A stretch of 59,868 bases of DNA from Armatimonadota bacterium (GTDB lineage Bacteria > Armatimonadota > SYMT01), in NCBI GenBank assembly GCA_046292385.1, contig JBKBRF010000042.1, positions 1-59,868 on the forward strand, given 5' to 3'. Positions 21,757 through 59,702 of the stretch are shown here, piece after piece; positions within the stretch are counted from its first letter, which is position 1; each line of letters starts with the position of its first letter. The translations under genes and the position numbers were made by a program. A model generated the notes under the pieces. That model saw only the letters and a list, made by a program, of their open reading frames with translations, made no database searches and was not told where the DNA came from.

Positions 21757-21788
21757 CCGGAGCTACAACCGCATAGAGACGAGCAGTG

Positions 21789-21822: not shown

Positions 21823-22347
21823 CGCGAGTCCGGCCTGCCGTGGTGACAACCCGGCAGAATCCGACCGGACGGTCCACGCCCGGCCCATCTCCTATCGCTC
21901 GTTTCGCGTTCTCCCGAACGGAAGCCGGCCCTCGGGGCTTTCAACCTTTCGGTGGACTCTCCGGCTGCCGCCCACCGCGGCCCCAGCAGGTTGCCCCGAC
22001 CGCTGCCCGGAGCCAGGTCCAGGCCATCTCGTCGCCTCGCCGCCGCTTCAGGCGGGTCGGGGACCGGGTGCGGATCCGGTCGTTCCCCTGGCTACCTGGC
22101 TCTCATCTGCGGGAAGCCGCGCATTCGGCAGAGTGGCGCCACCCGTCCCCGCGCCCCCCGCTCGCGGAGACTGTCCCACGGGTTACGATCCCCAACAAAA
22201 GGCTGACCCCCTGTTGTCGTCCGTACGAATGATCTGCAGAGCAGCTGCACCCGCCACCATCAAGCCAACCGCCGGGCGCGGCTCTAAGTCGGGCTGCGCG
22301 CCTCCGCGGAAGTCAATGAGCCAAATAAGCCAAAGGAAAGATGACCA

Positions 22348-24984: not shown

Positions 24985-25013
24985 GCCTCACGCGCTGCGC
25001 CTTTGCGGCGCAC

Positions 25014-25080
25014 GGCGGGCTGGCGGCAAGAGCTGTCGCCAGTCCGCTCCCCTCCAGCCCGAACAGGCGGGCTGGAGGGC
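25014..25080 (+). terminator. Two consecutive hairpins after paralogue 2
   Basis: gcgggctggcggca-agagc-tgtcgccagtccgc and ccctccagccc...gggctggaggg. Confidence 0.55.
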
Positions 25081-25177
25081 CTGCCCAGATGACGCCGAGG
25101 TAGCGTCCCTATTGCCGAACCGGAGCCCGCTCGCCGCCGCTGCTGAGCAAGAAAAAGAGTTTCTTGTCGATAGCAAG

Positions 25178-25206
25178 GGAACATTCGTCAGATCCGGTCG
25201 GTCCAT
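25178..25206 (+). promoter_or_regulatory. Second ECF-type promoter
   Basis: GGAACAT-N16-GTCCAT, preceded by the same TAGCAAG as the 18852 site. Confidence 0.5.
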
Positions 25207-25683
25207 GACCCAGGTAACACCCTCTAGTTGGCTTGCTACGGCCCGGCCCGGCATCTGCACTCAGCTCTGCCGGGCCATTGAGGATCGGGGCGAGCCCACT
25301 GCCGAGGGGATCACCGATTGGCAGCGACGCACCCACGGGTGACCTGGCTGCCCCGGGCTCTCCAGGAGCCCGGCAGACGCCGCCTCCGCCGGCCTCCCGG
25401 CTGCGCGGAAGTGGCTAAAGAGCGCCGGCGTAGCTCCGCACTCCGAACTGCGGCATCAGCTCGATCTCAGCGAGCCGGAACATTCCGGCACCGTTGAGCC
25501 TGGCACGCATAACCCAGGAGCGAGCTCTACTCCGGTCTTGCACATCCAGAGGATGACCCCACGGGGCTTCCGCACCAAATCCGCGGATCGTCGGCACAAA
25601 CCCGATCAACGCCATTCGCTCGGCGAGGCTCAGATCGGCCGGACGCACCCGTGGAAGTCAACGAGCCAAGGGAAAGGCAAACA

Positions 25684-33501: not shown

Positions 33502-34941
33502 TCAGTGGCTCACTGTTGGCTGCCCGCCTACAGCTTCGGGCCGCGCGTGGGTCCGCTCCTCGGGGGAGAGCAGACAGATCACAGGCTGGAACTTCCCATT
33601 CGGTCCGCGGGGAATGTCCGCCATCTCCTCCAGGCTGACCGCCACCTCCCCGACCCTTGCTTGCAGCCGCTCGACCAGCGTCCGCGCGGACGCGTCGTCG
33701 AAGCCGTCGGCCGGAACGTACCGGACGCGGATCCGGTCCAGGCTCTCCTGGATGATCTGGCTCTGACGGAGCGGTAGGCCGTAGAAGACCGGATTGAGCC
33801 AGAACACCTTTCGGCCGTCGCGAGTGATCAGCAGGTCGCTGTTGCGCCCCTCGATGCGCCCGAAGAGCGGCAGGCCGCGGCCGCAGGCGCAGGGGGGTCC
33901 GGGCTCGACCGGATGGCCCCGGTCCCCGATCCGGTAGCGGATCAGCGGCATGTCCGCGTTGAGCAGACCGGTCCCGACCAGGTCGCCGCTCTCTCCGGGC
34001 GGAGCCGGAGCCACGCCCTCCAGCCGCTCCACCCAGCCGACTTCGGGCCACTGGTGCAGGTGTCCCGCTTCGCACTCGCTCGCGGCCGCCGTCAGCTCCC
34101 CCATGCCGTAGGTCTCGCACACCCGGCACTGGAACGCCTCGGAGATCACCCGCCGCTGCTCCTCGGAGAGCGGCTCGGCGTTGGTGATGGCGACCGTCAT
34201 CCGCAGGTCACGCCGTCCCAACCGCAGCACCTCGAGCGCGAGCGCGTGCAAGGATGAGGTGTAGCCGTAGAAGTGGCTGATCCGGTACCGGACCAGCGCC
34301 TCCAGGTAGAACGGGATAAGGTCCGGGGCCAGGTGGAAGGTGGACATGTAGAGCTGTCCCAGCGACGCGTTCCAGACCCAGAACGGCGGCTTTCGCTGGG
34401 CCAGCGGCACCACCATTTGGCCACCGAGCATGGCGTACCGGTCTCCCCGGCGGGCCCCATGCCAGCCGCGAGCTCGCGCCGCGGAGAGGGCGTAGAGTGC
34501 CCGCACCGTCTCCCGGCTCCGCCAGAGATGGATCGGCTTTCCGGTCGTCCCGCTGGTCTGCAGGTGGAACATCCGGCCGCGATCGCAGTCGTCCGCCACG
34601 AACGCCTCCGGCCGCTCGCGCAGGGCCTCCTTCTCCAGCACCGGCCAGTTCTCCAGCGCCTCCCAGGACGACCGGTCCCCGTGAGCGCGCCTCCGGGTCC
34701 ACTGCTCGCGGTAATACGGCACCCGGGTCGCGGCGCGGTGCAGCACGTACGCCAGCCGCTCCTCCCGCCAGGCGTGCCACTGCTCCTCGCTCCACCGCTC
34801 GCGCTCGTGCGCTTCTTCCACCAGGCGGTCCGAGTCGTGGCCGTAGCGCCAGGAGCGCAGGTAGGCTCCGCGCACGCTGGCGGCGGTCGAGCGCGCCCAC
34901 GGAGGCAGACTGTTGTAGACCTGGAACAGCCAACTGCTCAT
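33502..34941 (-). CDS. CapK / phenylacetate-CoA ligase family adenylate-forming enzyme
   Basis: TSGTTG, ETYGMGE, MPLIRYRIGD and IEGR motifs; start MSSWLF overlaps the upstream stop. Confidence 0.88.
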   Translation of the reverse strand: MSSWLFQVYNSLPPWARSTAASVRGAYLRSWRYGHDSDRLVEEAHERERWSEEQWHAWREERLAYVLHRAATRVPYYREQWTRRRAHGDRSSWEALENWPVLEKEALRERPEAFVADDCDRGRMFHLQTSGTTGKPIHLWRSRETVRALYALSAARARGWHGARRGDRYAMLGGQMVVPLAQRKPPFWVWNASLGQLYMSTFHLAPDLIPFYLEALVRYRISHFYGYTSSLHALALEVLRLGRRDLRMTVAITNAEPLSEEQRRVISEAFQCRVCETYGMGELTAAASECEAGHLHQWPEVGWVERLEGVAPAPPGESGDLVGTGLLNADMPLIRYRIGDRGHPVEPGPPCACGRGLPLFGRIEGRNSDLLITRDGRKVFWLNPVFYGLPLRQSQIIQESLDRIRVRYVPADGFDDASARTLVERLQARVGEVAVSLEEMADIPRGPNGKFQPVICLLSPEERTHARPEAVGGQPTVSH

Positions 34942-36104
34942 GCTTCTCTCCTGGAGTGTCCACTGCCGCCGGGCCCGGGCTCTCCGCCACGGGCCGGAAC
35001 TGCCCCGGCAGACGCTGCCGCCGCGGAGCGAGCCAGCGGATCGGCCCCACTGGCGGGCCGTGCCGGTCGCAGCCGCCGCGTGACCCGCCCACCCCGGCGG
35101 AGGAGCGCCGCCAGCCCGAGCGCCGGCACCAGCGAGAGGCGGGCAAAGCCGGCCCCGTCTCCCCCACGGATCGCCGCCCCCAGCCGGGCTGCGTAGAGCG
35201 GCACCACCAGGCGTCGTACCGGCAGCGAAAAGCCGTCCCGCGCGAAGCTCGGCCACCGCCAGCGATCGTGATCCAGGCGCGGCGCCACGTCGGGCGGCAG
35301 GAGCGGCCGGTCGAAGAGGCGCTGGTGGACCTGCTCCGCGTATCCCGCACAGCAGGAGAGTGCCGTCAGGATACCGAGACGCCGCGCGGCACCGAGGAGA
35401 TAGTCCCAATCGAGATTCCGCTCCCGCAGGACGTCGACGGCGCTCACGAGGTCGGAGAGCCGGACCGACGAGCGGACCCAGACCAGCCCCAGCGCCTGGA
35501 GCAGGAGCTGGTCTTCTCGCGACGGCACCCAGAAGCGAGCGCCCGCGAGGCTCACCTGGCGGCGGTTCCGCGTCACCTGAGCGGCGTACGCAGCGCACTC
35601 CCCCGCCACGCCCAGGCGTCCGTGAAAGATCTCCAGCGGAGTGGGGCAGGCCGCCAGCTCATAGGTGGCCGAGCCGGCGACGGCATGGGCAAAGCCGCGC
35701 GTCTCTTTCCGGAAGCCGAGCTCTCGCTCGAGATGGCGGTCGATGGTGCGGGACCGGCTGCCGACCAGCAGATCGATATCGCCGCCCATGTCGGGGTAGT
35801 GCTTGAACGACTTGAGAAACACACACGCTACGTCGCGCTCCGCGCAGACTCGCTGGATCTGCCGGATCGCCTGGACCGCCGCCTGCACCCGCCGCCGCTC
35901 CTGCCCGGCGGCCTCGCTCACCGCCGGGGCGAGCGGGATGCCGCGCGCGGCGAGCTGCTCGGCGACGCGTAGAAACACGTGACCGGCCTGCGCCACCTTG
36001 CAGAGCCGCTCCTGGTCCTGCACTTCCGGTGGATCCGGAGTGAACGCCGGATCCAGCAGGAGCCGGAGAGCCAGGTGTGCCGATGCTACCGTGTGAGAGC
36101 TCAT
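34938..36104 (-). CDS. Nucleotidyltransferase family protein (NTP_transf_5-like)
   Basis: FLKS...GGDIDLLV, LEIFH, PSREDQLL and LSD...LDWD motifs. Confidence 0.75.
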   Translation of the reverse strand: MSSHTVASAHLALRLLLDPAFTPDPPEVQDQERLCKVAQAGHVFLRVAEQLAARGIPLAPAVSEAAGQERRRVQAAVQAIRQIQRVCAERDVACVFLKSFKHYPDMGGDIDLLVGSRSRTIDRHLERELGFRKETRGFAHAVAGSATYELAACPTPLEIFHGRLGVAGECAAYAAQVTRNRRQVSLAGARFWVPSREDQLLLQALGLVWVRSSVRLSDLVSAVDVLRERNLDWDYLLGAARRLGILTALSCCAGYAEQVHQRLFDRPLLPPDVAPRLDHDRWRWPSFARDGFSLPVRRLVVPLYAARLGAAIRGGDGAGFARLSLVPALGLAALLRRGGRVTRRLRPARPASGADPLARSAAAASAGAVPARGGEPGPGGSGHSRREA

Positions 36105-36772
36105 CCGGCTCTCCTCTCGACCACCAGCTCCTGAAGCTGCGAGATCGATGCCTTCAGGTCCTCATTGGTGAGGATCACGGCCCGGTCCACCCAGCCGAAG
36201 ACGCAGCGATACGCAGCCTGGCGGCGGCGCAGGTTGTCCAGGTCGAACTCACCCTTTCGGGCAAAGGCGTCGCGTGGATCGGCGTCGACGAAAACCGGCA
36301 CATCCGGAGTCGGTACCACCTTCAAGAACCACCGGGCGTAGGTCCAGCGGTGGCCGTCCGCCAGGTCGACCAGGCGATCGTAGAAGTACCGGTCCATGAT
36401 CAGGACCCGCTTCTGTACCCGCTCGATCGAGTAACGGTGGTAGTAGAAGACGAGCAGGTCCAGCAGGTCTACCCAGCGCCGGAGCGACTTGTTCCACACC
36501 ACTTTGCTGACGACGTTCCGGCCGATCGGCCTGGGAGCGGTCGATCGCCGCTCGGGGGTGCGCTCATTCGAGCTCGCCGAGCCGCGCGGACGGAACGCGC
36601 GAGAAAGGCGTTTCGCGCGGTCGCGGAGAGCGCGAATGCTCGCATAGAGACCGATATCCTCGTTCATGTGAAACACGGTGACGCGCTGATTCTGTGCTTC
36701 GAGGGCGGACTTGAGCGCTTCGATCAGGGTTGACTTTCCGGCTCCGTCCACTCCGGAAAACGTAATCATCAT
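36101..36772 (-). CDS. Thymidylate-kinase-like P-loop kinase
   Basis: ITFSGVDGAGKST, MDRYFYD, PTPD and ARKGE motifs. Confidence 0.8.
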   Translation of the reverse strand: MMITFSGVDGAGKSTLIEALKSALEAQNQRVTVFHMNEDIGLYASIRALRDRAKRLSRAFRPRGSASSNERTPERRSTAPRPIGRNVVSKVVWNKSLRRWVDLLDLLVFYYHRYSIERVQKRVLIMDRYFYDRLVDLADGHRWTYARWFLKVVPTPDVPVFVDADPRDAFARKGEFDLDNLRRRQAAYRCVFGWVDRAVILTNEDLKASISQLQELVVERRAG

Positions 36773-36880
36773 CGCGATACACCTCAGGGCTAACCCGCAG
36801 CGCTCGTCGCTGCGGGGGGAAGCACTGGAGAGTCAAAGAAAGCTCGATGGGAAACTCGTTCGCGGGCGTCCTTCACGCGT

Positions 36881-38413
36881 CTACCACTGCTGAACGTAGA
36901 GGGTTCGGTAGCGATCCTTGGCCTGCTCGACGGCCCACGGGTACGCATATCTGAAGAGATTCAGCCGGTACTCCGGGCCTTCCAGATGCGACAGCAGCTG
37001 CGCCGCGCGCGGACGCAGACTCTTCGGCGCGGACCGGGCGATCTTGCGCGCCACCCTCATGCCGGTCCGGTACGGCGCATACATGCGCGCCAGCAGATCT
37101 CCGGAGAGATGGGTGGGGACCCGCCGCCTGGCGGCAAGGGCGTCCGAGTGCAGTCGCAGCCAGTCGCGATAGTCGCTCTGACCCCGCTCCGAAAGGCGGC
37201 TGTCTCCCGTTCCCAGCAAGACGGACGCGGCCTTTTTGGAGACGCCGAACAGCTCTCTCGGCACGCCGGCTTCTTCGACGATGCGCCGGCAGATCGGACG
37301 GCTGTAGTCGCCCGGAACATCCCAGCTCCGCATCTCGGGCGCGTGACTGATCTCGTTGACTTTGCGGATCTCCCGGACCCCCATGAACGGCACCGGAAAG
37401 TGAATGAAGCCGGCCCACAAGCGGTACTCGGTGAGTGAAAGTCCGGATTGGTCCGCGCGTACGATGTAGGAATCGAGGCACGGCACTTGTTTGCCCCACA
37501 TCTTGTCGCCGTGGAAGCCGGTCAGGAGGACCCGGCCGTGCAGCAGTGACTCGGCCCCCGTGAAGTAGACATCCTCGCCCTTGGCGTCCGCAGCGAGAAA
37601 TGGAATTTCCGCCAGCCGGCTCTGCCTCCACGAGTGGCGGGGGATCAGGGTCAGATCGACGCCGAGGATCTCCGCGATGCGAGCGCCGTCATCGGCGGCG
37701 CCCCCTCTCGCTTCGCTGAACGAGATCACCTCCCGAAGCCCGTGCTCTCGGGCGAGAGCGGTCACGGTGGAGGAGTCGTATCCGGACGAAAGCGTGCCGA
37801 GGAGACCGTAGGGGAAGCGGCGCGCCGGGTCCGCCGCGTTCTCCAGGATCTTCCCCAGGGCACGGTCCAGGAAGCTTCGATACCGCTCGAACGACCCGAA
37901 GTCCCGCGGCGGAGTGGGTTTCTCGACCTCGTGCAGCGTGAAGCCGTCCCAGGCGAGATTGTGAAAGTAGGTGAGTTGGATCGTTCCCCGGGCTGCTTCC
38001 AGATGGCGCTGGTACTGGACGAGGCCGCTCACGATCGAGCCGAAGAACTCCGGGTAGCCGGGATAGGTGGGATCCAGCGGGATCTCCGTCACCGCCAGCA
38101 GGCAGACCAGCGAGTTCGAGACCCAGACCTGGTCTCCGCGCTCCAGCGACTGCAGGCGGTCGACGGTGGCCCCGGAAGAGACGAACGTCACCTGCGAGTC
38201 GCGAATGCAGCCTCCGGAGCCGAAGACCAGGTCGGTCCGGTCGAGCTTCCCGTCGCCGAAGTCGCCGTCCCAGATCCCCTCGCAGAACCAGTGCTCCTGG
38301 ACCTCGACGCGCGGCCCATGCAGCACCGTGACGGTACGATCATCCTGCCTGCAGCACGCCAGCCAGACGAGGGGCGGCCATTCATCGATGAGGCAGTAGC
38401 GAAAGCGCATCAT
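36881..38413 (-). CDS. Asparagine-synthetase-like PP-loop protein lacking the N-terminal Cys
   Basis: TLSSGYDSS (PP-loop) and LLTGFHGD, resembling the AsnB synthetase domain. Confidence 0.55.
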   Translation of the reverse strand: MMRFRYCLIDEWPPLVWLACCRQDDRTVTVLHGPRVEVQEHWFCEGIWDGDFGDGKLDRTDLVFGSGGCIRDSQVTFVSSGATVDRLQSLERGDQVWVSNSLVCLLAVTEIPLDPTYPGYPEFFGSIVSGLVQYQRHLEAARGTIQLTYFHNLAWDGFTLHEVEKPTPPRDFGSFERYRSFLDRALGKILENAADPARRFPYGLLGTLSSGYDSSTVTALAREHGLREVISFSEARGGAADDGARIAEILGVDLTLIPRHSWRQSRLAEIPFLAADAKGEDVYFTGAESLLHGRVLLTGFHGDKMWGKQVPCLDSYIVRADQSGLSLTEYRLWAGFIHFPVPFMGVREIRKVNEISHAPEMRSWDVPGDYSRPICRRIVEEAGVPRELFGVSKKAASVLLGTGDSRLSERGQSDYRDWLRLHSDALAARRRVPTHLSGDLLARMYAPYRTGMRVARKIARSAPKSLRPRAAQLLSHLEGPEYRLNLFRYAYPWAVEQAKDRYRTLYVQQW

Positions 38414-41257: not shown

Positions 41258-43240
41258 TCACTGCGGCTTCTTCTGGTAGAGCCCGGGGGTGGAGCCGCGC
41301 TCGAGCTGGGCGCCCCAGGCGAGAGCCGAGCCGCCCTCCCGCTTGTACTGGCCCGGGTACAGGTAGATCCGCAGCTTGTGCCCGGCCGTGACCTCGCCGA
41401 TGGCAGCCGCAATTCGCTGCCACGCAGCGGAGAGGGTGAAGGGTGTCTCGACGAGCCGCACCTTCGTGTTCAGGTTGTCGATGCGGACGGTGGCGAGGCT
41501 CAGGGTGCCGGCCTGCAGGTAGCAGGAGAAGACGTACGGCCCGGTTTCGGGGACCGTCACGTCGGTGTAGACCGCGGGATAGCCGCTGGCGGCCGGGGCG
41601 TCGTCGACTCGATCGGCGGTCTGCGCGCCGTTCGGGTCGACTGCGGCGTCGGCCGTGACCACGCATCCCTCACGGGTCGTCCACCGGTCGAACTGCTCAC
41701 TGAAAGCGAGCAGGTTCTCTCCGGGGACGACGTCCGGCGTCGTGGCGCTCGCGACGTTGGAGTAGTCGGAGTAGAGGTCTCCCGCGAAGGCGCGCACCCG
41801 GTAGTAGAAGGTGGTGCTCGCGGCGCCCGGATCGTCCACAAAGCTGGTGCTGTCCGGTCCCGCTACGCCGACGACGCTGAACTGCGTGCCGTCGGTCGAG
41901 CGCTCGATCTCCACGCCTTCCTCGTTGTTCGCGTGGTCGGTCCAGGCGAGATTGATGCGCGTGGTGACCGTCGCGGTCGCTGCCAGGTCCGACGGCGCGG
42001 CCGGCGGGACGTGAATCTTCGCCGAGGCGGTGTTAGACGGCGCGGAGAGCTGATCGCCCTTGAAGGCGCGCACCACGTAGGCGTAGGTCACCCCGGCCGT
42101 CACCGCCGTGTCCTGGTAGGCGGTGGTGTTCGCCGGGAGCGCCGGCAGCGCGGTGAAGCTGCCGCCGTCGGCGGAGCGCTGGACGATGAAGCCGTCCTCG
42201 TCGACCGAGTTGTCGGACCAGCCCAGGTCGATCCGCGACTCCGACGCCACCGTCGCGCTCAGGCTTCCAGGCGCCGGCAGAGCCGACTCCGCCCACAGCG
42301 TAAAGCTGTCGATCAGCTCGCCGGTGCGGGTGAAGAACTCGAAGGTGATACGATCCGCCGCCGCGGTCACCCGCTGGGCTCCATAGTCCGCGCCGTAGCG
42401 GACCAGGCTCCCTGCGGCGGGAGTCAGGCCGTCGAAGTTACCCCGGCTTCGCCCGCCCAGCCCGTTGATGACGTAGGTCAGCCCGTCGACCAGCAGGCGC
42501 TCGTAGATGTGGTGCTGTCCGGACAGCACTGCGTCGGCGCCCCACTCCTTGAACGGCCAGCGCAGCGTCGAGTACCCTCCCCGGGTTCCGTAGGGTGGGT
42601 GATGGATGACGACGAGCTTCCAGGGCGCGGTGGAGGCGGCCAGCCGTGCCTGGAGCCATTTGGCCTGTACGGAGGTGCTCTTGATGCCGTCCGGCTCGTG
42701 CTTCTCGCTGTTCAGCATGAAGAAGTGCACGGGACCCCAGGTGAAGTCGTAGTAGCGCTCGTTGTTCGGCAGCGTGAAGTAGTCGAGGTAGGCGGTATAC
42801 CCCGTGGAGGAGTGCCAGTCCTTGTCCGCCAGCGCGGGAAAGAACCGGTTCGTCTCCGCGCCCGCACCGTAGCTGCCCCGGTAGGGATGGATGTACTCCT
42901 GGTAGTACTGCCCGACGTTCTTGTCGATCGTCTGCGCGGCGCCATTCGAGTAGGTCTTGTCGCCGTAGTTGTTGTCGCCCAGCGTGGCGATGAGCTCCGG
43001 GCTCCAGCTCTTCACCAGGCTCGCCACATCCCGCTCGGCGGTACCGCTCCAACCGTAGTCCCCGATGATGGCGAAGAGGCACTCGCTCGCCTGCGCCGCC
43101 GCAGGCCGGGCGCTCTGAAGCTCTACCAGCGAGAGGCCGGCCGCGGTGATCAGGCTGGTCCGTATGAGGTCACGCCGGTTTAGCGAAAGGTGCTCCCGCG
43201 GGGGGGCAGCCGGCCGGGACTGGTGCTTGCGATTCATCAT
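41258..43240 (-). CDS. Tat-exported metallophosphoesterase (PAP-like, altered motifs) + 2x FN3 + CBM-like domain, paralogue A
   Basis: NRRDLI Tat motif; GDYG, GDNNY, HHPPY; FN3 repeats; C-terminal NLLAFSE...WGAQLERG. Confidence 0.85.
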   Translation of the reverse strand: MMNRKHQSRPAAPPREHLSLNRRDLIRTSLITAAGLSLVELQSARPAAAQASECLFAIIGDYGWSGTAERDVASLVKSWSPELIATLGDNNYGDKTYSNGAAQTIDKNVGQYYQEYIHPYRGSYGAGAETNRFFPALADKDWHSSTGYTAYLDYFTLPNNERYYDFTWGPVHFFMLNSEKHEPDGIKSTSVQAKWLQARLAASTAPWKLVVIHHPPYGTRGGYSTLRWPFKEWGADAVLSGQHHIYERLLVDGLTYVINGLGGRSRGNFDGLTPAAGSLVRYGADYGAQRVTAAADRITFEFFTRTGELIDSFTLWAESALPAPGSLSATVASESRIDLGWSDNSVDEDGFIVQRSADGGSFTALPALPANTTAYQDTAVTAGVTYAYVVRAFKGDQLSAPSNTASAKIHVPPAAPSDLAATATVTTRINLAWTDHANNEEGVEIERSTDGTQFSVVGVAGPDSTSFVDDPGAASTTFYYRVRAFAGDLYSDYSNVASATTPDVVPGENLLAFSEQFDRWTTREGCVVTADAAVDPNGAQTADRVDDAPAASGYPAVYTDVTVPETGPYVFSCYLQAGTLSLATVRIDNLNTKVRLVETPFTLSAAWQRIAAAIGEVTAGHKLRIYLYPGQYKREGGSALAWGAQLERGSTPGLYQKKPQ

Positions 43241-43270
43241 TCAGCGTCCTTCTCTGCAGAGAGAGCGGTC

Positions 43271-43313
43271 CGTGTCTCACCGCCGGCGAGCGTTCTGCCG
43301 GCGGTGAGACACG
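43271..43313. terminator. 17-bp perfect hairpin between phosphoesterase paralogues
   Basis: cgtgtctcaccgccggc-gagcgttct-gccggcggtgagacacg. Confidence 0.65.
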
Positions 43314-43321
43314 AACGGCGG

Positions 43322-45529
43322 TTAAGCGGGCTTCTTCCGGTACGGTCCCGGGACGGAGCCGCGCTCGAGCTGCGCGCCCCAGGCCAGGATCGAGCCGCCG
43401 TCCCGCTTGTACTGGCCGGGATAGAGGAAGATCCGCAGCTTGTGTCCCGCCGGCACGTCAGCCAGGACGGCAGAGAAGCGCTGCCACGAGCCGGAGAGGG
43501 TGAAGGGCGCCTCCACCAGTCGCACCTTCGTGTTCAGGTTGTCGATGCGGACGGTGGCCAGGCTCAGCGAGACGGCCTGCAGGTAGCAGGAGAAGACGTA
43601 CGGCCCGCTCTCGGGGACCATCACGTCGGTGTAGACCGCGGGAAAGCCGGTCGTGGAGAGAGAGTCGTCGAGCCGGTCCGCCGTCACCCCGCCGTTCGGA
43701 TCGGCGCCGGCGTTGGCGGTCACCGCGCAGGCGTTCTGGACCGCCCACCGGTCAAGCTGCTCGCTGTACGCCAGCAGGTTCTCGTTGGCCGGAGTCCCGG
43801 GCGTGGTAACCTGCGCCACGTTCGAGTAGTCGGAGTAGCGGTCTCCCACGAACGCGCGGACCCGGTAGAAGAAGGTGGCGCCTTCGACCTCCGGATCGTC
43901 CGTGAAGCCGGTGCTGTTCGGACCGGCGAGGCCGACCACGCTGAAGCGAGTCCCGTCCGCGGACCGCTCGATCTCGACTCCCTCTTCGCCGTCCGCGCGG
44001 TCGGTCCAGGAGAGCCGGATCGCCGTGGAAGTCTCCGGTGAGCCGCCGTTCGCGCTCTCGATCGAAAGGCCGAAAAGCACCGCGTCGCCGTAGATGCGGG
44101 CGATTTGCAGATCCAGCGCCCCGTCCTGTACGGAGACTCGGAAGGGCCCGTACTTCCGCCAGCTTCCGAGCGGGAGGGTGCCGATCCCGCTCGCCAGGGT
44201 CGCTCCCTCGCCGGTCGCGGTCATGCTCCGGTAATTGGGCCGCCAGTTCTCGATCATCCAGAGGCAGACGTCGTACTCGCCGTTCGCCAGCGCCTGGCGC
44301 ACCTGGAAGGCGCCCGGCTTCCAGATACAGCTCTCCAGCATCGTGCGAGTATCGGCGTCGGCCGTCGGTGAGAGCTCGAAGGTGTAGCTCCCGCTCCAGC
44401 TATCGGCCCCGGTGACGGAGAGCCCCTGGCCCAGCGCGTCGGCGTGGGAGAGCCACTGCCTTCCTTCGATGGTAACCGCCGGTCCGTTCAGGTTGATGCC
44501 GCGGAAGTAGCCGGAGGCCGGTGCCGCCGGCGCGGCCTCCAGGTTGGCGGGCGCCGGCAGCGCCGCCTCTTTCCAGAGGGTGAAGCTATCGATCAGCTCG
44601 CCGGCGCGGGTGAAGAACTCGAACGTGATCCGGTCGCTCGCCGCGGTGACGCGCTGCGCCCCGTAGTCCGCCCCGTACCGGACGAGACTCCCCTCCGCCG
44701 GATCGAGCCCTACGAAGTCGCCGCGGCTCCGGCCTCCGAGGCCGTTGATGACGTAGGTGAGCCCGTCGACCAGCAGGCGCTCGTAGACGTGGTGCTGTCC
44801 GGAGAGCACCACGTCGGCGCCCCACTCCTTGAACGGCCACTGCAGTCGCACAAAGCCGCCGCGGGTGGCGTAGGGCGGGTGATGGAGCACGACGATCTTC
44901 CAGGGGGCGGTGGAGGCGGCGAGCCGGGACTGCAGCCAGGCGGACTGCACGGACGGATGCCGGGATCCGTCGGGGTCATGGAGCTCGCTGTTCACCATGA
45001 AGAAGTGAACCGGACCCCAGGTGAAGTCGTAGTAGCGCTCGTTGTGGGGCAGGGTGAAGTAGTCGAGGTACGCCTGGTAGCCGATCGCGGCGTTCCAGTC
45101 CTTGTCCGCCAGGGCCGGGAAGAAGCGGTTCGTCTCCGCGCCCGTCCCGTAGCTGCCCAGGTACGGGTGGATGAACTCGTGGTAGTACTGCCCGATATTC
45201 TTGTCGATCGTCTCGACCGAGGCGGTCTCGTAGACGGTGTCCCCGTAGTTGTTGTCCCCCGTGGTGACGATGAACTCCGGGCTCCAGCTCTTCACCAGGT
45301 TCGCCACGTCGCGCTCGGCGGTACCGCTCCAGCCGTAGTCCCCGATGATGGCGAAGTGACACTCGCTCGCCTGCGCGTGTGCCGGGCGGGCGCTCTGCAG
45401 GTCTACCAGCGAAAGGCTGGCTACGGTGAACAGGCCGGTCCGAATCAACTCGCGCCGGCTCATACCAGGATGCGGACACGTTTCGTCCGCCTGGGGGGCA
45501 AGGTTCTGGAAATCGCGTTCGGATTGCAT
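43322..45529 (-). CDS. Tat-exported metallophosphoesterase + FN3 split by a malectin-like insert + CBM-like domain, paralogue B
   Basis: SRRELI Tat motif; same motifs as paralogue A; extra ~160-aa insert GINLNG...GALDL. Confidence 0.85.
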   Translation of the reverse strand: MQSERDFQNLAPQADETCPHPGMSRRELIRTGLFTVASLSLVDLQSARPAHAQASECHFAIIGDYGWSGTAERDVANLVKSWSPEFIVTTGDNNYGDTVYETASVETIDKNIGQYYHEFIHPYLGSYGTGAETNRFFPALADKDWNAAIGYQAYLDYFTLPHNERYYDFTWGPVHFFMVNSELHDPDGSRHPSVQSAWLQSRLAASTAPWKIVVLHHPPYATRGGFVRLQWPFKEWGADVVLSGQHHVYERLLVDGLTYVINGLGGRSRGDFVGLDPAEGSLVRYGADYGAQRVTAASDRITFEFFTRAGELIDSFTLWKEAALPAPANLEAAPAAPASGYFRGINLNGPAVTIEGRQWLSHADALGQGLSVTGADSWSGSYTFELSPTADADTRTMLESCIWKPGAFQVRQALANGEYDVCLWMIENWRPNYRSMTATGEGATLASGIGTLPLGSWRKYGPFRVSVQDGALDLQIARIYGDAVLFGLSIESANGGSPETSTAIRLSWTDRADGEEGVEIERSADGTRFSVVGLAGPNSTGFTDDPEVEGATFFYRVRAFVGDRYSDYSNVAQVTTPGTPANENLLAYSEQLDRWAVQNACAVTANAGADPNGGVTADRLDDSLSTTGFPAVYTDVMVPESGPYVFSCYLQAVSLSLATVRIDNLNTKVRLVEAPFTLSGSWQRFSAVLADVPAGHKLRIFLYPGQYKRDGGSILAWGAQLERGSVPGPYRKKPA

Positions 45530-45554
45530 GTCTTCTCCTCCTGGCTGATGAGCT

Positions 45555-47321
45555 TCAGCGGTTCACGAGCCGCCGGCGAGGGCGCAGCGGCATGCGCCGG
45601 CGCGGCGGGCTGGACAGGCTTCTGAGGTAAGGCCCGGCGGTGGAGCCGCGCTCGAGCTGCGCGCCCCAGGCGAGGACCGACCCTCCCTCCCGCCGGTACT
45701 GGCCGGGATAGAGGTAGATCCGCACCTTGTGTCCCGCCGTGATCTCTCCGAGCGGGACGGTGAATCGCTCCCAGGATCCGGTGGGGAGCGTGAGGGGAGC
45801 CTCGACCAGCCGCAGCTTCGTGATCAGGTTGTCGATCCGGACGGTCGCCTGTCGGAGCGATTCCGCCTGGAAGTAGCAGGAGAAGACATAGGGTCCGGTT
45901 GTCGGGACCGTGACGTCCGCGTAGATGGCGGGATAGCCGGCCGTGGAGGGGGAGTCGTCGATCCGGTCCGCGGTCATCGTCAGGTTCGGAGCGGCCGCGA
46001 CGTTCGGGACGACCGTGCAGCCCTCCCGCATCACCCACCGCTCGAACTGCTCGCTGTTGGCGAGCAGGTTGGTGCCGCCCGTGGAAGCCGGTGTCGTGGC
46101 GCTCGCCACGTTGGAGTACTGGGAGTAGCGAGTGCCGGCGGCGGCGCGGACCCGGTAGTAGAAGGTCGTGGCCGGGGTCCCGGTCTCGTCCGCGAAACTG
46201 GTGCTGTTCGCCCCCAGGACCGCGATCAAAGAGAAGCTTGCCCCATCCCGGGAGCGCTCCAGCTCGAACGTCTCTTCGCCGCTCGTCTGGTCGACCCAGG
46301 TGAGATTGATGAGGGTGCCGGCCGTCGGGCTCGCCTGCAGTTGGGTGGGCGCCGCCAGGGGGAGCTCGCCCCAGAGGGTGAAGCTGTCGACCAGTTGTCC
46401 GGCGCGGCTGAAGAACTCGAAGGTGATCCGATCGCTGGCCGCGGTGACGCGCTGCGCCCCGTAGTCCGCCCCGTACCGGACGAGACTCCCCGCTGCCGGC
46501 TGCAGGCCGTCGAAGTTGCCCCGGCTGCGGCCGCCGAGCCCGTTGATGACGTAGGTCAGTCCTCCGACCTCCAGCCGCTCGTAGACGTGGTGCTGGCCGG
46601 AGATGACGGCGTGGGCGCCCCACTCCTTGAACGGCCACTGCATCCGCGCCAGCCCTCCCCGCGTCGCGTACGGAGGGTTGTGGCAGACCACGATCTTCCA
46701 GGGAGCGGTGGAAGCGGCGAGCTGGCGCTGCAGCCAGGCGGACTGGACCGAGGGATGCTTCGCTCCATCCGGCTCGTGCTTCTCGCTGTTCAGGATGAAG
46801 AAGTGGACCGGACCCCAGACGAAGTCGTAGTAGCGCTCGTTGTGGGGCAGGGTGAAGTAATCCAGGTGGGCCTGGTAGCCGAGGGTGGGGTGCCACTCCT
46901 TATCGGCAACCGCGGGGAAGAACCGGTTCGTGTCGGCCCCCGCGCCGTAGCTTCCCCGGTACGGGTGAATGTACTCGTGGTAGTACTGGCCGACGTTCTT
47001 GTCGATCGTCTCGACCGAGCCATTCGCGTAGACAGCGTCCCCGTAGTTGTTGTCCCCCGCGGTGACGATGAGCTCCGGGCTCCAGCTCTTCACCAGGTTC
47101 GCCACGTCGCGCTCGGCGGTGCCGCTCCAGCCGTAATCACCGATGATGGCGAAGAGGCACTCGCCGGCCTGGGCCCAGCCGGGTCGAGCGTGCCGGAGAT
47201 CGGCGAGCGAGAGCGCCGCCGCGGTGAACAGGCCGGTGCGAATCACTTCACGGCGGCTGACTCCCGAGGACGGCAGCAACTGCTGGACCTGGTTGTGTAG
47301 AGCGGATCTCTTCATCTCCAT
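45555..47321 (-). CDS. Tat-exported metallophosphoesterase + FN3 + CBM-like domain, paralogue C
   Basis: SRREVI Tat motif; same motifs as paralogue A. Confidence 0.85.
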   Translation of the reverse strand: MEMKRSALHNQVQQLLPSSGVSRREVIRTGLFTAAALSLADLRHARPGWAQAGECLFAIIGDYGWSGTAERDVANLVKSWSPELIVTAGDNNYGDAVYANGSVETIDKNVGQYYHEYIHPYRGSYGAGADTNRFFPAVADKEWHPTLGYQAHLDYFTLPHNERYYDFVWGPVHFFILNSEKHEPDGAKHPSVQSAWLQRQLAASTAPWKIVVCHNPPYATRGGLARMQWPFKEWGAHAVISGQHHVYERLEVGGLTYVINGLGGRSRGNFDGLQPAAGSLVRYGADYGAQRVTAASDRITFEFFSRAGQLVDSFTLWGELPLAAPTQLQASPTAGTLINLTWVDQTSGEETFELERSRDGASFSLIAVLGANSTSFADETGTPATTFYYRVRAAAGTRYSQYSNVASATTPASTGGTNLLANSEQFERWVMREGCTVVPNVAAAPNLTMTADRIDDSPSTAGYPAIYADVTVPTTGPYVFSCYFQAESLRQATVRIDNLITKLRLVEAPLTLPTGSWERFTVPLGEITAGHKVRIYLYPGQYRREGGSVLAWGAQLERGSTAGPYLRSLSSPPRRRMPLRPRRRLVNR

Positions 47322-49644: not shown

Positions 49645-51207
49645 TTAGATCCTCGCCCAGAGCAGACCCTTGAGCTCCGTCAGCACTTCTTCCGCGCTCC
49701 GGCTCGTGTCGATCCGCGGCACTCCCAGGCCTTCCCAGTCGATCGACCGGAACTCCCGGGAGCGGCTGCGAACCTGCTCCGGATCCTCCTGCGGCTTCCG
49801 CGCTACGGCGGTCTCCGGATCTACGGTCAGGGCGATCACCACCTCGGGCGCCAGCATCCGCGCGTAGTAACTCCGCTCGCGATCCGCGAGCCAGCCGGCC
49901 AGCCGGCCCCCGGCACGGCCGTTGAGAAACCGGGCGATCTTCGGACCGTCCATCTGCTTGATCTGGGGGCAGGGAAACCGGTCGCAGATCACGAGCCCTC
50001 CCGCCGTCGCGAAGCGGCGGGCCTCCGTGTAGAGACGGACCCGGTCTCGCGCGACGCAGACGTACCGCAGCATCTGCAGGTAGTCCCCGGCACCGAGCCC
50101 GCCGGTATCCGCCGGAGCGGCGGGCTTCCGCTCGTTGAGGAGCCGCGTGCCGCGGGCGAGCAGCGCGACCACCTGCGTGGAGAGCGAGCGCGGCGGCTTG
50201 CCGAGGTGGATGCGGCGCGTGGCCACTGTCTTCGAGATCCACCGGTGAAGCCCGTCCGCCGCGGAAGTCTTGCCGGCGCCGTCCCCTCCCAGCAGGGCCA
50301 CCATGGCGCCGCCGTTGGACAGCAGCTTCCGGGTGCCGCGCCGCGGCAGTCGGTTCCGCGCGAGCTTCTGCAGGCGGCGGCCGAACCGCACCAGGGAGTC
50401 GAGAAGGAGCGGCTGACGCGCGTGAGCCTGGAGGCGCCGGATCAGCCGCTGCCGGATCGCCAGCCGGGCCCAATTGGAGCACCGGGGATGCAGCGAGTCG
50501 ACGCACTCGCGGAAGAGCTCGGGCCCCACGCCGGGGAGGTGGCGATCCAGCAGCCGGAGGACCTGGTCCGGGTCCGCCCGCTCCGCGAGCCACAGATACT
50601 CCTGATAGACGGAGGCGGAGAGACCCCCCTTGCGGCTCCAGAGCTCGACTGCCGAGTACTTGAGCACCATCCGCACGACGTAGAGGATCAGCTCCAGCTC
50701 CGGGGCGGGGAGACAGAGCAGCCCGTGGGGCCGCGCCGACGCGACGAACGCCTCCTCCAGCGGCACGTGGAAGTTCTTGGAGAGGTCGTGCCCTACCACC
50801 AGCTGCGAGTGAGCGTGCACGTGCACGAACTGGTCCGTGGCGACGTCGAGCCCGTAGTAGTGCTGAATACCGGGCACCAGCGCTCCCGGTGAGACGACCT
50901 GCCTGAAGCCGAGCTCTGAAAGCAGAGCCGTGAAGCGCAGCCAATCGGACCGGCCCACCAGCAGGTCGAGATCCCCCTCACCGCCGGCCCAGCGCTGGGC
51001 CCGCCAGTTGCTCTTCCAATGGCAATAGCGGATCTCACGGCTCTCCAACTGCTGGCAGAGCTGCCGGATCAGCGGGGAGACCAATCCTCCGGAAGCCGGC
51101 TCGGCGCTCGAGCGGGCGATCCCGCCCGTCTCAATTCCGAGCGGGCTTCCGTCAGTCATCGCGAGGGTCGAGCAAGCTGCAGACGATCTGTTATCAAGCG
51201 GGGCCAT
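49645..51207 (-). CDS. Fusion of a nucleotidyltransferase-like domain and a thymidylate-kinase-like domain
   Basis: N-terminal YCHWKSN...GDLDLLV...HVHAH; C-terminal LLGGDGAGKTS and ICDRFP. Confidence 0.75.
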   Translation of the reverse strand: MAPLDNRSSAACSTLAMTDGSPLGIETGGIARSSAEPASGGLVSPLIRQLCQQLESREIRYCHWKSNWRAQRWAGGEGDLDLLVGRSDWLRFTALLSELGFRQVVSPGALVPGIQHYYGLDVATDQFVHVHAHSQLVVGHDLSKNFHVPLEEAFVASARPHGLLCLPAPELELILYVVRMVLKYSAVELWSRKGGLSASVYQEYLWLAERADPDQVLRLLDRHLPGVGPELFRECVDSLHPRCSNWARLAIRQRLIRRLQAHARQPLLLDSLVRFGRRLQKLARNRLPRRGTRKLLSNGGAMVALLGGDGAGKTSAADGLHRWISKTVATRRIHLGKPPRSLSTQVVALLARGTRLLNERKPAAPADTGGLGAGDYLQMLRYVCVARDRVRLYTEARRFATAGGLVICDRFPCPQIKQMDGPKIARFLNGRAGGRLAGWLADRERSYYARMLAPEVVIALTVDPETAVARKPQEDPEQVRSRSREFRSIDWEGLGVPRIDTSRSAEEVLTELKGLLWARI

Positions 51208-55801: not shown

Positions 55802-56625
55802 TTATCATGGCTAGTCACCGCAGGCTCTCCGAGGATACCACCTGCCCAGGAAGGTGAAACAACGATTAAATCTCTCTTCAAGCTCCAGATTCGAATCAGG
55901 GAATACCGATGCCGCCTGCAGTAGTGATCAGAAATCGACGCAGAAAAACGCTGGAACTCTCAAGTCAGTTTCGGCCTGAGAGCTGGCGTAGAGAGCACGA
56001 TGCTCTGGTAGTTAATTGATCAAGCAGCGCGATGATTCTGTATAAAGGAGTGATGCCGAGTCTCTGGGAGAATCTGCTCCGATTCCCCACGGGATCCGCT
56101 AATGGATTCCCCCGCGGCAGCAGTAATTGCCGCATGCGAATGAGGATATCGAGCCGATAATCGGGACCTCACCTCACATTCATCGGGCCGGGCCAGCTCC
56201 TGGTCAACTCCAGCGCACGGCCTGGAGATGTCTCACCTCGTGGGAGATGTCCTGGCCGGTGCTGGGGCTCCACAGGTACAAGTGCGAGGGCCGGCGCCCC
56301 ACGTGCAAGCGGACGCGGGCTCCGCCGGGATTGACACCGATTTGTCATCTCGCCCGCCGCAATTCCGTGCGTCAGCGCTTCGCTTGCCGGGTATCCGTAC
56401 CGTGAGGCGCCTCTGGAACCTCCACGACCAGCCCGCCGGCTCTCTCCACTCGGTGCGAAGTCCGGCGGTCGCAGCGGAGGCGAGTCCGCATCATCCCACT
56501 GCAGACCCGGCCTCTCTGGAGGCGCGCTCCGAACCGGCCAGAGCATGGATTCCATCCTCGGCCGGCGGCGGTGATGGGCACTGGCGAGGTATGTCGCCAG
56601 CTCCCCAACTCAGGAGATCCCCGCA

Positions 56626-57090
56626 ATGGTACCAAGAGCGAGAGAAGACGGTTTGATCGTCCGCGAGATGTCAGATGAGGTGCTCGTGTATGACACGGAG
56701 CGCCATCTTTCTCACTGCCTCAACCGCAGTGCTGCGCTGGTGTGGCGCAGCTGTGATGGAAAGCGGGGGGTGGATGAGATTACCGCACGGTTAGGGGAAG
56801 ACCTGGCGGTTCCGGCAACCGAGGAGATGGTCTGGTTAGCGCTCGAGAGCCTGGAGAAGGCGCACCTGCTCCAGGACCGCGTGGTCCGGCCCGAGGGGGC
56901 GGCGCGGTACTCCCGTCGTGAGGTGGCCCGGATGACGGGAAGGGTCGGCATGGTGGCGGCACTCCTTCCGGTCGCGGCCAGCATTGTCGCTCCCACCAAA
57001 GCGCAGGCCGCGTCGGGATCCAACGGTAAGAAGAAGGGCCACACCGACAAGGGCAAGAGCGACGGCAAGGGCAAGGGTCCTAAGAAGTAG
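56626..57090 (+). CDS. PqqD/RRE-family protein fused to a Tat-like leader and a Lys/Gly-rich C-terminal peptide
   Basis: EVLVYD...HCLNRSAALVWRSCDG...V..ALESLEKAHLL winged helix, then SRREV...APTKAQA-ASGSNGKKKGHTDKGKSDGKGKGPKK; AGGAG Shine-Dalgarno. Confidence 0.8.
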   Translation: MVPRAREDGLIVREMSDEVLVYDTERHLSHCLNRSAALVWRSCDGKRGVDEITARLGEDLAVPATEEMVWLALESLEKAHLLQDRVVRPEGAARYSRREVARMTGRVGMVAALLPVAASIVAPTKAQAASGSNGKKKGHTDKGKSDGKGKGPKK

Positions 57091-57133
57091 GGGGCCTGGC
57101 GGCAAAGCCCGGGCCGAGCTAGGAGTGACACCC

Positions 57134-58018
57134 ATGGAGATTCGGGCTTTGCCGTCCCGCCCGCCGACCCCCCGCGCTCTGGCGCCCAGCTCGCACCCTC
57201 GCTGGCAGGGCTGCATTGGGTTCGTCAGCTATGGCGTGCGGATTGCGATCCGCTCCGACGATTCGGAGTTCCTGGACCGGCTGGTAGACCTGCTCCCTCC
57301 CGGACACGAGCGGTGCTCCGCTGCCCGGGTGGACCGCCTCTATTCCGTCACCCGCTCCCGTTGGGCGCCGTGCAGCCGCGCCCCGCAGTCGGTCGAAGGT
57401 CGAACGCGCGCGTACCGCGTCTACGCCGGCTCCAGGCCCCTGGTGCGGTCCACCAACCGGGACCTCGCGCTGGAGGTGCTGGGCTCGGATATTCAGCTCA
57501 CCGTGGCGGACCTGGCTCGCGAGCGGCTGTTCGTGCATGCGGGGGTGGTTGCCTGGCGTGGGCGGGCGATCCTCATTCCCGGGCGAAGCTTCACCGGCAA
57601 GACGAGTCTGGTGGCGGCACTCCTCCGGGCCGGCGCCGTCTATTATTCCGATGAATACGCGGTGTTCGACGGGGACGGCTACGTGCATCCCTATCCGCGC
57701 CCGCTGTCGCTGCGGGTGGCGACGTCGGAGGTTCGGACCCGGTGTCCGGCCGAGTCGCTCGGCGCCGGCACGGGTGACGCACCCCTGCCGGTGGGACTGG
57801 TGGTGGTGACCCGGTATCGGCCCGGCGCTCGCTGGAGCCCGCGTCCTCTTACGGCCGGCCGCGCGGCCCTGGCCCTGCTGGCGAACACCGTGTCGGTCCG
57901 GCGGCAGCCGGAGTTCGCGCTGGCGACCCTGGAGCGAGCCGTCTCCCAGGCCCGGGCACTCCGCGGACCTCGTCCCGAGGCCGAAGAGATCGTCACCACT
58001 CTGCTCGGTCTTGAATAG
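57134..58018 (+). CDS. HPr-kinase-like P-loop kinase (RiPP-associated type)
   Basis: FVHAGVV, GRSFTGKTS, YSDEY and PYPRPL motifs; AGGAG Shine-Dalgarno at 57121. Confidence 0.8.
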   Translation: MEIRALPSRPPTPRALAPSSHPRWQGCIGFVSYGVRIAIRSDDSEFLDRLVDLLPPGHERCSAARVDRLYSVTRSRWAPCSRAPQSVEGRTRAYRVYAGSRPLVRSTNRDLALEVLGSDIQLTVADLARERLFVHAGVVAWRGRAILIPGRSFTGKTSLVAALLRAGAVYYSDEYAVFDGDGYVHPYPRPLSLRVATSEVRTRCPAESLGAGTGDAPLPVGLVVVTRYRPGARWSPRPLTAGRAALALLANTVSVRRQPEFALATLERAVSQARALRGPRPEAEEIVTTLLGLE

Positions 58019-58030
58019 GGATGGGGCGGC

Positions 58031-59134
58031 ATGTCCTGGCATTCCGGAACTCTGGATCGGCGCGGAGAGCAGATAGGTGAGCTCCTGCGAGGCACCTGGC
58101 GCGCGGATCCACCGCCGCCCGCGGTCTCTCCGACGGGCCTGGCCGAGCTCGCGCCGCTGCTCCTCGACACCGCCGCCTCGAGCTTGGCGTGGTGGCGGAT
58201 CCGCGGCTCGGAGCTGGCGGGCTCCGACGCGGGTCAGGCGCTCCGCGAGGGCTATCTTTTCCACACCCTCCAGGCAGCGGTCCTGGAGCATCAACTGGCG
58301 GACACGCTGCGGCGGCTGCGGGCCGCGGGAGTGGAGCCGCTCCTGATCAAGGGGTGGGCCGTGGCGCAGCTCTATCCGGAGGCGGGACTGCGCCCCTACC
58401 GCGATCTGGACCTCTGCGTGCGCCCGGAGGACTACTCCCGGGCCATGGAGGCCCTCGAGCCGCTCGACGCCGCGGGTTATCCGCTGGAAGTCAAGTCGCT
58501 CTGCCCCGATCTCGAGGGGACTCCAGTGGACGAGCTTCTATCCCGCTCGGGGACCATGGCTCTGGCTTCGAGCCCGATCCGGTGTCCCGGTCCGGAGGAT
58601 CACCTGCGCCTCCTCTCCGTCCACATGTTCCGTCACGGCCTGACGCGCCCCGTCTGGTTGTGCGATGTCGCCGCTCTCGTGGAGGCGTTTGGCGGAGAGC
58701 TGGACTGGGATTACTGCCTCCGCGAGGACTATCCCGGCCACTGCGTGGGAGCGGCCGTGGGCCTGGCGGAGCAGCTCCTCGGCGCCGAGCTTCCCGCGCC
58801 TGCCGCCGCCGCGGGTGCCTGCCGCCTGCCGCCCTGGCTCGTTCCGGCGGTGCGGCGTCAATGGGGCAGCCCCGTCGCCGAGCGCCGGTCGCTTCGAGCC
58901 TGGCGTAGTCCGCGCGGCCTCTTGAGCGAGCTCCGTCAGCGGTGGCCGAACCCGGTCAGTGCGACGGTCCGCTGCGGTCGGCACTTCGACGCGTCCCCGC
59001 GCCTGCCCCTCCAGCTTGCCCACTACCTCCGCCTGGGAAGCCGCTCTCTCAAGGCGCTGGCAGAGCGGCCTCCCGGCAGCTCGGACGCCGCCCCGACGAG
59101 CGCCGCGGAGCCGGAGCCGCCCCGCCGCGAGTGA
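58031..59134 (+). CDS. Nucleotidyltransferase family protein (NTP_transf_5-like)
   Basis: LLIKG...LYP...LRPYRDLDL, PEDHL...H..RH and WLCD...LDWD motifs. Confidence 0.82.
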   Translation: MSWHSGTLDRRGEQIGELLRGTWRADPPPPAVSPTGLAELAPLLLDTAASSLAWWRIRGSELAGSDAGQALREGYLFHTLQAAVLEHQLADTLRRLRAAGVEPLLIKGWAVAQLYPEAGLRPYRDLDLCVRPEDYSRAMEALEPLDAAGYPLEVKSLCPDLEGTPVDELLSRSGTMALASSPIRCPGPEDHLRLLSVHMFRHGLTRPVWLCDVAALVEAFGGELDWDYCLREDYPGHCVGAAVGLAEQLLGAELPAPAAAAGACRLPPWLVPAVRRQWGSPVAERRSLRAWRSPRGLLSELRQRWPNPVSATVRCGRHFDASPRLPLQLAHYLRLGSRSLKALAERPPGSSDAAPTSAAEPEPPRRE

Positions 59135-59318: not shown

Positions 59319-59702
59319 ATGCCTCCGCCGCATGTCGCCACCGTCCTGATCGTCGAAGACGATGGGACCACCCGGCTCGTGCTGCGGCATATCGTGGCGG
59401 CGGCCGGCTGCGTAGCCGAGACGGCAGCCGACGGCGTCGAGGCACTGGAGTGGCTCTCGTCTCACTCGCCGCCCCAGCTCATCCTCCTCGATCTCGTGCT
59501 GCCGCGTCTCGGCGGCGAGCAGATGCTGCGGCGGATCGCGCGACAGCCGCCGCTGTCGCGCGTCCCCGTGGTCGTGCTCACCGGGGGTGCGCAGGGAGCT
59601 GCGGTGGCCACGCACCCGCAGGTACGGGCGGTCCTTTCCAAACCGTTCGTTCCGGAGCAGATCCGGACGATCATTCAGGAGCTGACGAAGGACTACGGAT
59701 AG
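59319..59702 (+). CDS. Single-domain response regulator (CheY-like)
   Basis: LIVEDD, LLDLVLP, VLTG and KPF motifs. Confidence 0.88.
   Translation: MPPPHVATVLIVEDDGTTRLVLRHIVAAAGCVAETAADGVEALEWLSSHSPPQLILLDLVLPRLGGEQMLRRIARQPPLSRVPVVVLTGGAQGAAVATHPQVRAVLSKPFVPEQIRTIIQELTKDYG

Follow-up and report, generated by a model that had tools for sequence, protein, structure and literature searches.

A stretch of 59,868 nucleotides from an Armatimonadota bacterium (GenBank assembly GCA_046292385.1, contig JBKBRF010000042.1; hereafter the window) contains, on the + strand at positions 56626 to 59134, a cassette of three genes. Gene 1 (56626..57090, 154 residues) encodes on a single chain a RiPP recognition element (RRE; RiPP, ribosomally synthesised and post-translationally modified peptide), a leader with a twin-arginine-like motif and a short C-terminal passenger. 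Gene 2 (57134..58018, 294 residues) encodes an HprK-related P-loop kinase, and gene 3 (58031..59134, 367 residues) a nucleotidyltransferase of the NTP_transf_5 family. We propose, with moderate confidence, that the cassette is a lasso-free peptide-tagging system similar to the linear polyphosphorylated peptide (LPP) system of Bacillota (Popov et al. 2026, PMC13381572), in which RRE and precursor share one chain, Ser130 of gene 1 is tagged and the product would be exported by the twin-arginine translocation (Tat) pathway.

Gene 1 and the family of its relatives

Gene 1 was delimited by its open reading frame (ORF), Pfam, and profile and homologue searches. Residues 1-88 (56626..56889) match the PqqD domain (PF05402, 28.2 bits as compared to a cut-off of 23.4) and were modelled with a pLDDT above 90 in the fold of lasso B1 proteins (5v1v_A, Z 9.5, rmsd 2.3 over 86 aligned residues; 6jx3_B, Z 9.3). 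The twin-arginine-like motif S96-R97-R98-E99-V100 (56911..56925) is internal and has Ala at the third hydrophobic position. It is followed by a hydrophobic stretch, in which the best 12-residue Kyte-Doolittle mean (2.46) starts at residue 110, by a leader motif running from P115 to P123 (56968..56994; family form P-x-V/I-x-S-I-x-A-P), which contains Ser119 and is a candidate RRE-docking strand, and by A126-Q127-A128 (57001..57009), a putative signal-peptidase-I-like site. The 26-residue passenger (57010..57087) is rich in Lys and Gly (9 Lys, 7 Gly, 3 Ser, 1 Thr, no Cys), has a net charge of +7 and ends in Lys. The ORF and Pfam analyses bore out an earlier sequence-only reading, which had described the three genes and, in gene 1, the RRE, the SRREV motif, the hydrophobic stretch, the AQA site and the 26-residue tail. 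Genes 1 and 2 are separated by 43 nt, and genes 2 and 3 by 12 nt. Gene 2 starts with an ATG behind an AGGAG site and its kinase motifs, including the P-loop, are intact; gene 3 matches NTP_transf_5 with 97.7 bits (Pfam) and keeps the invariant G108, D125, D127 and D190. A profile search returned no solved-structure relatives of either enzyme.

A word-index search gave 240 relatives of gene 1 among 333 candidates, of which 120 were listed. A profile of RRE and leader (34 rows) matched 1,555 clusters (50% identity) at E ≤ 1e-30 and 5,928 at E ≤ 1e-10, where matches weaker than 1e-30 may include plain RREs; the best 150 were examined. In GTDB, 383 out of 424 candidate stretches were confirmed, and locus counts refer to the best 78 loci, which are found mostly in Acidobacteriota and Gemmatimonadota, and also in Armatimonadota and others. 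Conservation was measured on 360 pooled sequences, reduced by gap and 80%-identity filters to 274 that include gene 1 itself; 272 of them have the second Pro. In gene 1 numbering, R97 is present in 100% and R98 in 99% of these sequences (Lys in 1%), P115 in 97%, P123 in 99%, and Ser or Thr at position 119 in 97%. At the putative cleavage site, Ala occupies position -1 in 88% and Ala or Val position -3 in 84%, and Ser or Thr is found at passenger position +2 in 88%; past +3 the passengers are hypervariable. Judged from this alignment, the conserved unit is the RRE, the leader and Ser/Thr at +2, which agrees with the earlier description of an RRE-precursor fusion with a conserved recognition part and a hypervariable tail.

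The passengers range from 6 to about 260 residues and include Gly-rich, His/Asp-rich and collagen-like kinds as well as whole domains. At least four Cys are present in 256 of the 272, nearly always in even number, and some of the Cys-rich passengers weakly match small disulfide-knot Pfam families; nine, including that of gene 1, have none. Net charge lies between -1 and +1 in 158/272 and reaches at least +7 in only 10/272. The idea of the sequence-only reading that a cationic core made for the anionic exopolysaccharide (EPS) is the point of the system was therefore abandoned as a family function. The final residue is Ser in 15/272. In seven related genomes, 10 of 11 complete fusion copies are Cys-rich, as is most of the family, so the Lys/Gly tail of gene 1, an outlier, is best taken as a local variant. 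Cys-free Gly/His/Arg tails adjoin the kinase at two metagenome loci, L208 (a full trio) and L222. Gene 1 has no Cys after the leader that could serve as a lipobox, and a strict lipobox occurs in only 4/272 relatives.

Three further checks concerned the tail. The short overlapping + strand frames give no frameshifted Cys-rich tail; a kinship with the tail of P0113 stripped of its Cys scored 41, which was equalled by 26 of 300 shuffles and is not significant; a degenerate pattern for the tail junction had 0 matches in metagenome contigs. A word search for longer fused forms gave one weak match among 1,511 candidates. At locus L020 (10778-11542), the end of a secreted protein is a copy of the Cys-rich passenger of the fusion next to it (26/45 identical): the passenger moves as a module. 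The adjoining paralogue of this protein ends in what we take to be a PEP-CTERM-like sorting segment (no NCBIfam match).

Among the 78 loci, the kinase is present in 53, the nucleotidyltransferase in 57 and both in 47; of the 57 loci having at least 3 kb on each side, 40 have both enzymes and 15 lack the kinase. Since the two enzymes flank the fusion gene in 47/78 loci, the trio is more than a chance association. A B2-like gene was found in 0/78 loci with one B2 query, so that the trio without a B2 protease, which the sequence-only reading had noticed here, recurs across the family. Asn-synthase-like matches were found in 3/78 loci, ABC motifs in 3/78, and a signal peptidase, looked for with the SPase profile, in 0/78. 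The kinase lies upstream of the fusion gene in all 47 loci with both enzymes, and 45 of these have the order kinase-fusion-transferase; in our cassette the order is fusion-kinase-transferase. A kinase-first survey of metagenomes (80 loci fetched, 53 informative with at least 500 nt downstream) found the fusion gene directly downstream in 29/53 and anywhere in the locus in 32/53. Several fusion-less kinases (L164, L180, L199, L209, L215, L216 and L226) stand behind an ORF of about 645 residues, presumably an S9 peptidase.

EPS genes occur in 31/78 loci. Core EPS genes are present in 21 of 40 loci with at least 8 kb on each side, as compared to 3.6% of 2,697 equal windows of gene 1's own genome, a rough contrast because the loci are mutually related and the control windows come from another genome. 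This is in line with the co-occurrence with EPS loci that had been expected from the window.

Predicted leader docking, candidate modification site and proposed export

The LPP leader has a Pro at position -13 and adds its residues -12 to -7 to the sheet of the RRE, while up to four phosphates are borne by Ser+3 (PMC13381572). From P115 to S130 of gene 1 there are 15 residues, the same as from Pro-13 to Ser+3 in LPP. Across the family, 232 out of 264 sequences have Ser (147) or Thr (85) at Pro+15, as compared to 10-25/264 at four neighbouring offsets; in ordinary Tat-like signals of the genome, a crude control, Ser or Thr at +2 was counted in 11/72. Ser130 (57013..57015), at passenger position +2, is thus the best candidate phosphosite, on the basis of both the conservation at Pro+15 and the LPP spacing. 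Whether or not the kinase adjoins makes no difference to this site, which is Ser/Thr in 46/51 copies with and in 13/15 without it, two motif-less loci being dropped.

The leader motif may be held by the RRE of the same chain. An AlphaFold2 model built from 149 sequences places a strand at residues 117-121, right behind the Pro, with the RRE sheet as its presumable partner, no other being evident. This predicted strand is consistent with self-docking of the leader on the RRE. With regard to export, gene 1 has the sequence features of a Tat substrate (S/T-R-R-x-hydrophobic, h-region, AxA), and the genome encodes TatC and several signal peptidase I genes, with no match to TIGR02228 above its cut-off. 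Non-canonical S-R-R-E-V/L Tat-like signals are common in this genome and two lie in the window.

The following sequence of events is the one that we favour. Its starting point is what the alignments and loci document, namely an RRE fold joined to a family-specific leader, with kinase and transferase types that travel along. The segment P115-P123 is predicted to fold back onto the sheet of the RRE in the manner of leaders bound to lasso B1 and LppB. Like LppK in LPP, the gene 2 kinase would then phosphorylate or polyphosphorylate Ser130, the Ser/Thr at passenger position +2, and this phosphate may in turn be decorated by the nucleotidyltransferase. The passenger would leave by way of Tat, directed by the twin-arginine signal, and be cut off after Ala128 by a signal peptidase I of the housekeeping kind, in place of the dedicated peptidase and ABC exporter of LPP. 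The passenger would be an exchangeable cargo, usually a disulfide-rich peptide and here a short Lys/Gly tail. Phosphorylation, transferase action, Tat export, cleavage and the EPS link are all steps that we infer; the tagged peptide would probably end up at the cell surface or in the matrix, in connection with EPS assembly, which is the weakest step. More tentatively, this scheme might be extended to a general export-and-tag module, where the RRE holds the Tat signal of its own chain and presents position +2 to kinase and nucleotidyltransferase, and a cargo of 6-260 residues is released with an activated phospho-Ser/Thr handle linking it to EPS.

Several observations weigh against the proposed tagging. 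Thr occupies Pro+15 in 85/264 sequences and in 19 of 51 kinase-adjacent copies, and LppK leaves an S3T variant of LPP unmodified; no activity was seen for LppN, the LPP transferase (PMC13381572). Leaders of LPP and lasso peptides owe their RRE binding to Tyr or Trp at P-3, which was found in 0/264. In the model, the strand region has a pLDDT of only about 65-72, and a model from 43 sequences shows no leader strand. It is unusual for a Tat signal to lie internally, after a domain that is soluble and folded. Of the 53 informative kinase loci, 21 have no fusion gene. Gene 1 itself has Ala at P+2 (A117), unique among the 264, of which 260 have Val or Ile there. Gene 3 departs from the consensus at 7 out of 55 conserved columns (median 2; 6 of 44 other members have as many), and its Lys155 replaces a His that is invariant in all 44 other rows.

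The site may also lie in the leader. According to this explanation, the kinase phosphorylates Ser119 in the RRE-bound strand and so makes the signal available to Tat; the RRE would be a proofreading chaperone working in cis, and the passenger would be exported unmodified. The P+4 position is more strictly Ser than P+15 (228 Ser and 28 Thr of 264, and Ser in 46/51 kinase-adjacent copies), which suits a Ser-only kinase such as LppK, and Ser119 sits in the predicted strand. However, such a switch leaves the 88% Ser/Thr at +2 and the nucleotidyltransferase unexplained, and the LPP phosphate is on the core and not on the leader (PMC13381572). We regard it as unlikely.

Maintenance of this copy and other explanations

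It is about as improbable, in our judgement, that gene 1 encodes a plain Tat-exported small protein while the enzymes act elsewhere in EPS biosynthesis, or that this copy is a relaxed remnant with a functionless passenger. The kinases without fusion gene and the long loci without kinase, counted above, speak for this explanation, as do the loss of all Cys, the Ala at P+2, the deviant gene 3 and the unusual gene order. On the other hand, an ordinary Tat substrate has no need of an RRE or of so conserved a leader motif. A leader-only profile run over the genome gave 46 bits for gene 1, 37 bits for a paralogue on contig C27 and at most 14 bits for ordinary Tat signals. Cys-free tails are found beside the kinase also at L208 and L222, and the differences between strains argue for constraint.

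When related strains were compared (four sequencing runs; 10 coding differences listed, with 21 further, less-supported rows left out), all 10 listed coding differences were synonymous, as compared to 27% expected if random; in gene 1, these were 6 out of 6. A contig from an RNA library spans 56421-57187; its listed differences number 30 before the start of gene 1 and 5 within the RRE part, with none in the leader or tail. No difference is listed in the passenger in a strain about 95% alike. This shows that the gene 1 protein is constrained in a related strain, and the RNA-library contig does not prove transcription; that it leaves genes 2 and 3 uncovered carries no meaning. Gene 2 departs from the consensus at 4 out of 68 conserved columns, with a median of 5 for the other members. 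Taken at the level of sequence, the cassette copy is under purifying selection, though deviant at some conserved sites. No match to a sigma-70 promoter was found at the cassette, and the single terminator-like site is at chance level.

The Arg pair could instead be an enzyme-recognition element, unrelated to Tat, and another protease, such as a PorU-like C25 peptidase, could cut the leader and couple the peptide to a surface glycan. Genes for PorU-like large C25 peptidases occur in 25/78 loci (270 bits, cut-off 420), and TIGR01409 matches only 5/43 family members, weakly. Nevertheless, the Arg pair, the hydrophobic stretch, the Pro at -6 and the AxA site are all conserved as in a Tat signal, and 53/78 loci have no C25 gene, so that we find this explanation quite unlikely. 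A C25 search of the genome gave no match, and a control query likewise had none.

The genome was also searched for B2 proteases (PF13471), which were found in two places, on contigs C3 and C2, and in neither case in the window; the absence of a B2 protease from the window, pointed out in the sequence-only reading, was thus confirmed. Contig C3 (138913-142743) carries a complete lasso cluster, with B1, B2, cyclase, a precursor-like ORF lacking a C-terminal Ser, and its own kinase; the cluster adjoins a second Wzc locus, and a gene 3 paralogue (129785-131131, 39% identity, family consensus kept) lies about 9 kb from the lasso genes. That genes 2 and 3 serve this cluster, which does have B1, B2, cyclase and precursor-like ORF beside an EPS locus, as scattered tailoring enzymes is very improbable, considering that its own kinase resembles gene 2 over 51 residues only (31%, around the P-loop) and that gene 2 relatives adjoin fusion genes and not B2 genes. 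The sequence-only reading had named a lasso cluster elsewhere that supplies a separate precursor as evidence against itself; the C3 cluster exists but is self-contained, having a precursor of its own and a kinase only distantly similar to gene 2, and so does not speak against that reading.

Gene 2 is the only member of its kinase subfamily in the genome. The C27 paralogue of gene 1 (C27:52432-53088, 46% identity over 130 residues) has no kinase or transferase nearby and could be a second substrate of gene 2; in its passenger, a Lys/Gly-rich beginning gives way to a brief hydrophobic segment, a run of Arg and four Cys. A tree built on 59 RRE-leader rows has support at only 7 of its 56 inner branches and does not bear on a sister relation of gene 1 (contig C42) and the C27 copy. 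An RRE-M50 protease-HlyD fusion preceded by a short peptide ORF (C21:97047-100255) represents a separate RiPP-like system.

Surroundings and relation to known systems

The cassette diverges from a WbaP/Wzc/Wza/Wzy EPS operon on the - strand, with an intergenic gap of at least 824 nt. At 34938-38413 and 49645-51207 (-), this operon contains a second, distant NTP_transf_5 gene, a thymidylate-kinase-like gene and a 520-residue ORF whose C-terminal part is thymidylate-kinase-like. It also contains a weakly Asn-synthase-like ORF (36881-38413, -), below the Pfam cut-off and 18 kb from the cassette, which, like the second NTP_transf_5 gene, had been missed in the sequence-only reading. Also inside the operon, at 41258-47321 (-), there are three tandem metallophosphoesterase genes with C-terminal carbohydrate-binding-like domains, two of which scored as Tat-like; as a speculation, these enzymes could strip phosphate off exported products. 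Further left, at 19141-28323 (+), are three tandem fn3-domain genes coding for about 880 residues each. A single-domain response regulator (59319-59702, +) stands behind gene 3 and is absent from the recurring + strand neighbours of the cassette. Other recurring neighbours in the 78 loci are TPR + CBM_4_9 proteins (in 17), a secreted protein of only about 220 residues (in 12), an unnamed protein of about 434 residues (in 10) and a CxxCxxCC/FliB-like protein (in 8), often directly behind the fusion gene.

The enzyme set is already known from paeninodin-type lassos (PMC8498205) and LPP (PMC13381572). Paeninodin- and pseudomycoidin-type phosphorylated lassos share with the cassette the B1-type RRE fold, fused here, the HPr kinase homologue and the nucleotidyltransferase, whereas the cassette has no B2, cyclase, ring-forming core or C-terminal Ser. 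The sequence-only reading had called the cassette lasso-like, and the lack of cyclase and C-terminal Ser makes linear LPP the nearer neighbour. LPP likewise combines RRE, HprK-like kinase and NTP transferase without a cyclase in capsule/EPS loci, with a conserved leader, a variable C-terminus, signal-peptidase-I-type cleavage and a Pro-Ser spacing of 15 (PMC13381572). In contrast to LPP, the gene 1 family has the RRE fused to the precursor, belongs to other phyla and carries mostly Cys-rich passengers. Its leader has a twin-arginine motif, a hydrophobic stretch and AxA and departs from the YxxP consensus; the loci have no dedicated SipW-like peptidase or MsbA-like transporter, and the site is often Thr. 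The cassette would work like LPP but belongs neither to LPP nor to the lassos on the grounds of leader motif, peptidase and exporter.

A twin-arginine motif that works away from the N-terminus is also known in the actinobacterial Rieske protein, where it follows Sec-inserted membrane segments, while in gene 1 it follows a soluble RRE (PMC3471235). The literature searched, main-text passages on RRE-Finder included, does not describe a fusion of an RRE with a Tat-like leader of its own; supplements (RRE-Finder Fig. S7, LPP paper) and most subscription papers lay outside the search.

The NCBIfam HPr-rel-A models (TIGR04352 for the kinase, TIGR04353 for a PqqD-family chaperone) describe a similar set. 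TIGR04352 is the best NCBIfam match of gene 2, a weak one (HprK-related kinase A, 58 bits, cut-off 200). TIGR04353 matches 28/43 gene 1 relatives at E up to 0.05 and leaves gene 1 itself unmatched; its model has 74 positions, without leader or passenger. The HPr-rel-A cut-offs were not reached (relatives 59 and 71 bits; C27 paralogue 18 bits, cut-off 35). HPr-rel-A is a three-gene cassette that is not known to have been characterised.

The biological roles of LPP are described as unknown by its authors (PMC13381572). To this picture the locus adds a Cys-free passenger under selection and a site prediction at Pro+15. Recognition domain, leader and cargo lie on a single chain that is small and soluble, and the site is sharply predicted (Ser130, with Ser119 as its rival); for this reason the role of such enzyme sets becomes a question of expressing three genes. 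With a Cys-free tail, mass spectrometry is also spared the complications of disulfides. As a tag for export and phosphorylation that tolerates various cargoes, the system could serve as a tool. If the general export-and-tag module were true, it would bring RiPP enzymology together with Tat proofreading and protein-glycan anchoring, and the Cys-free gene 1 would be its minimal natural substrate.

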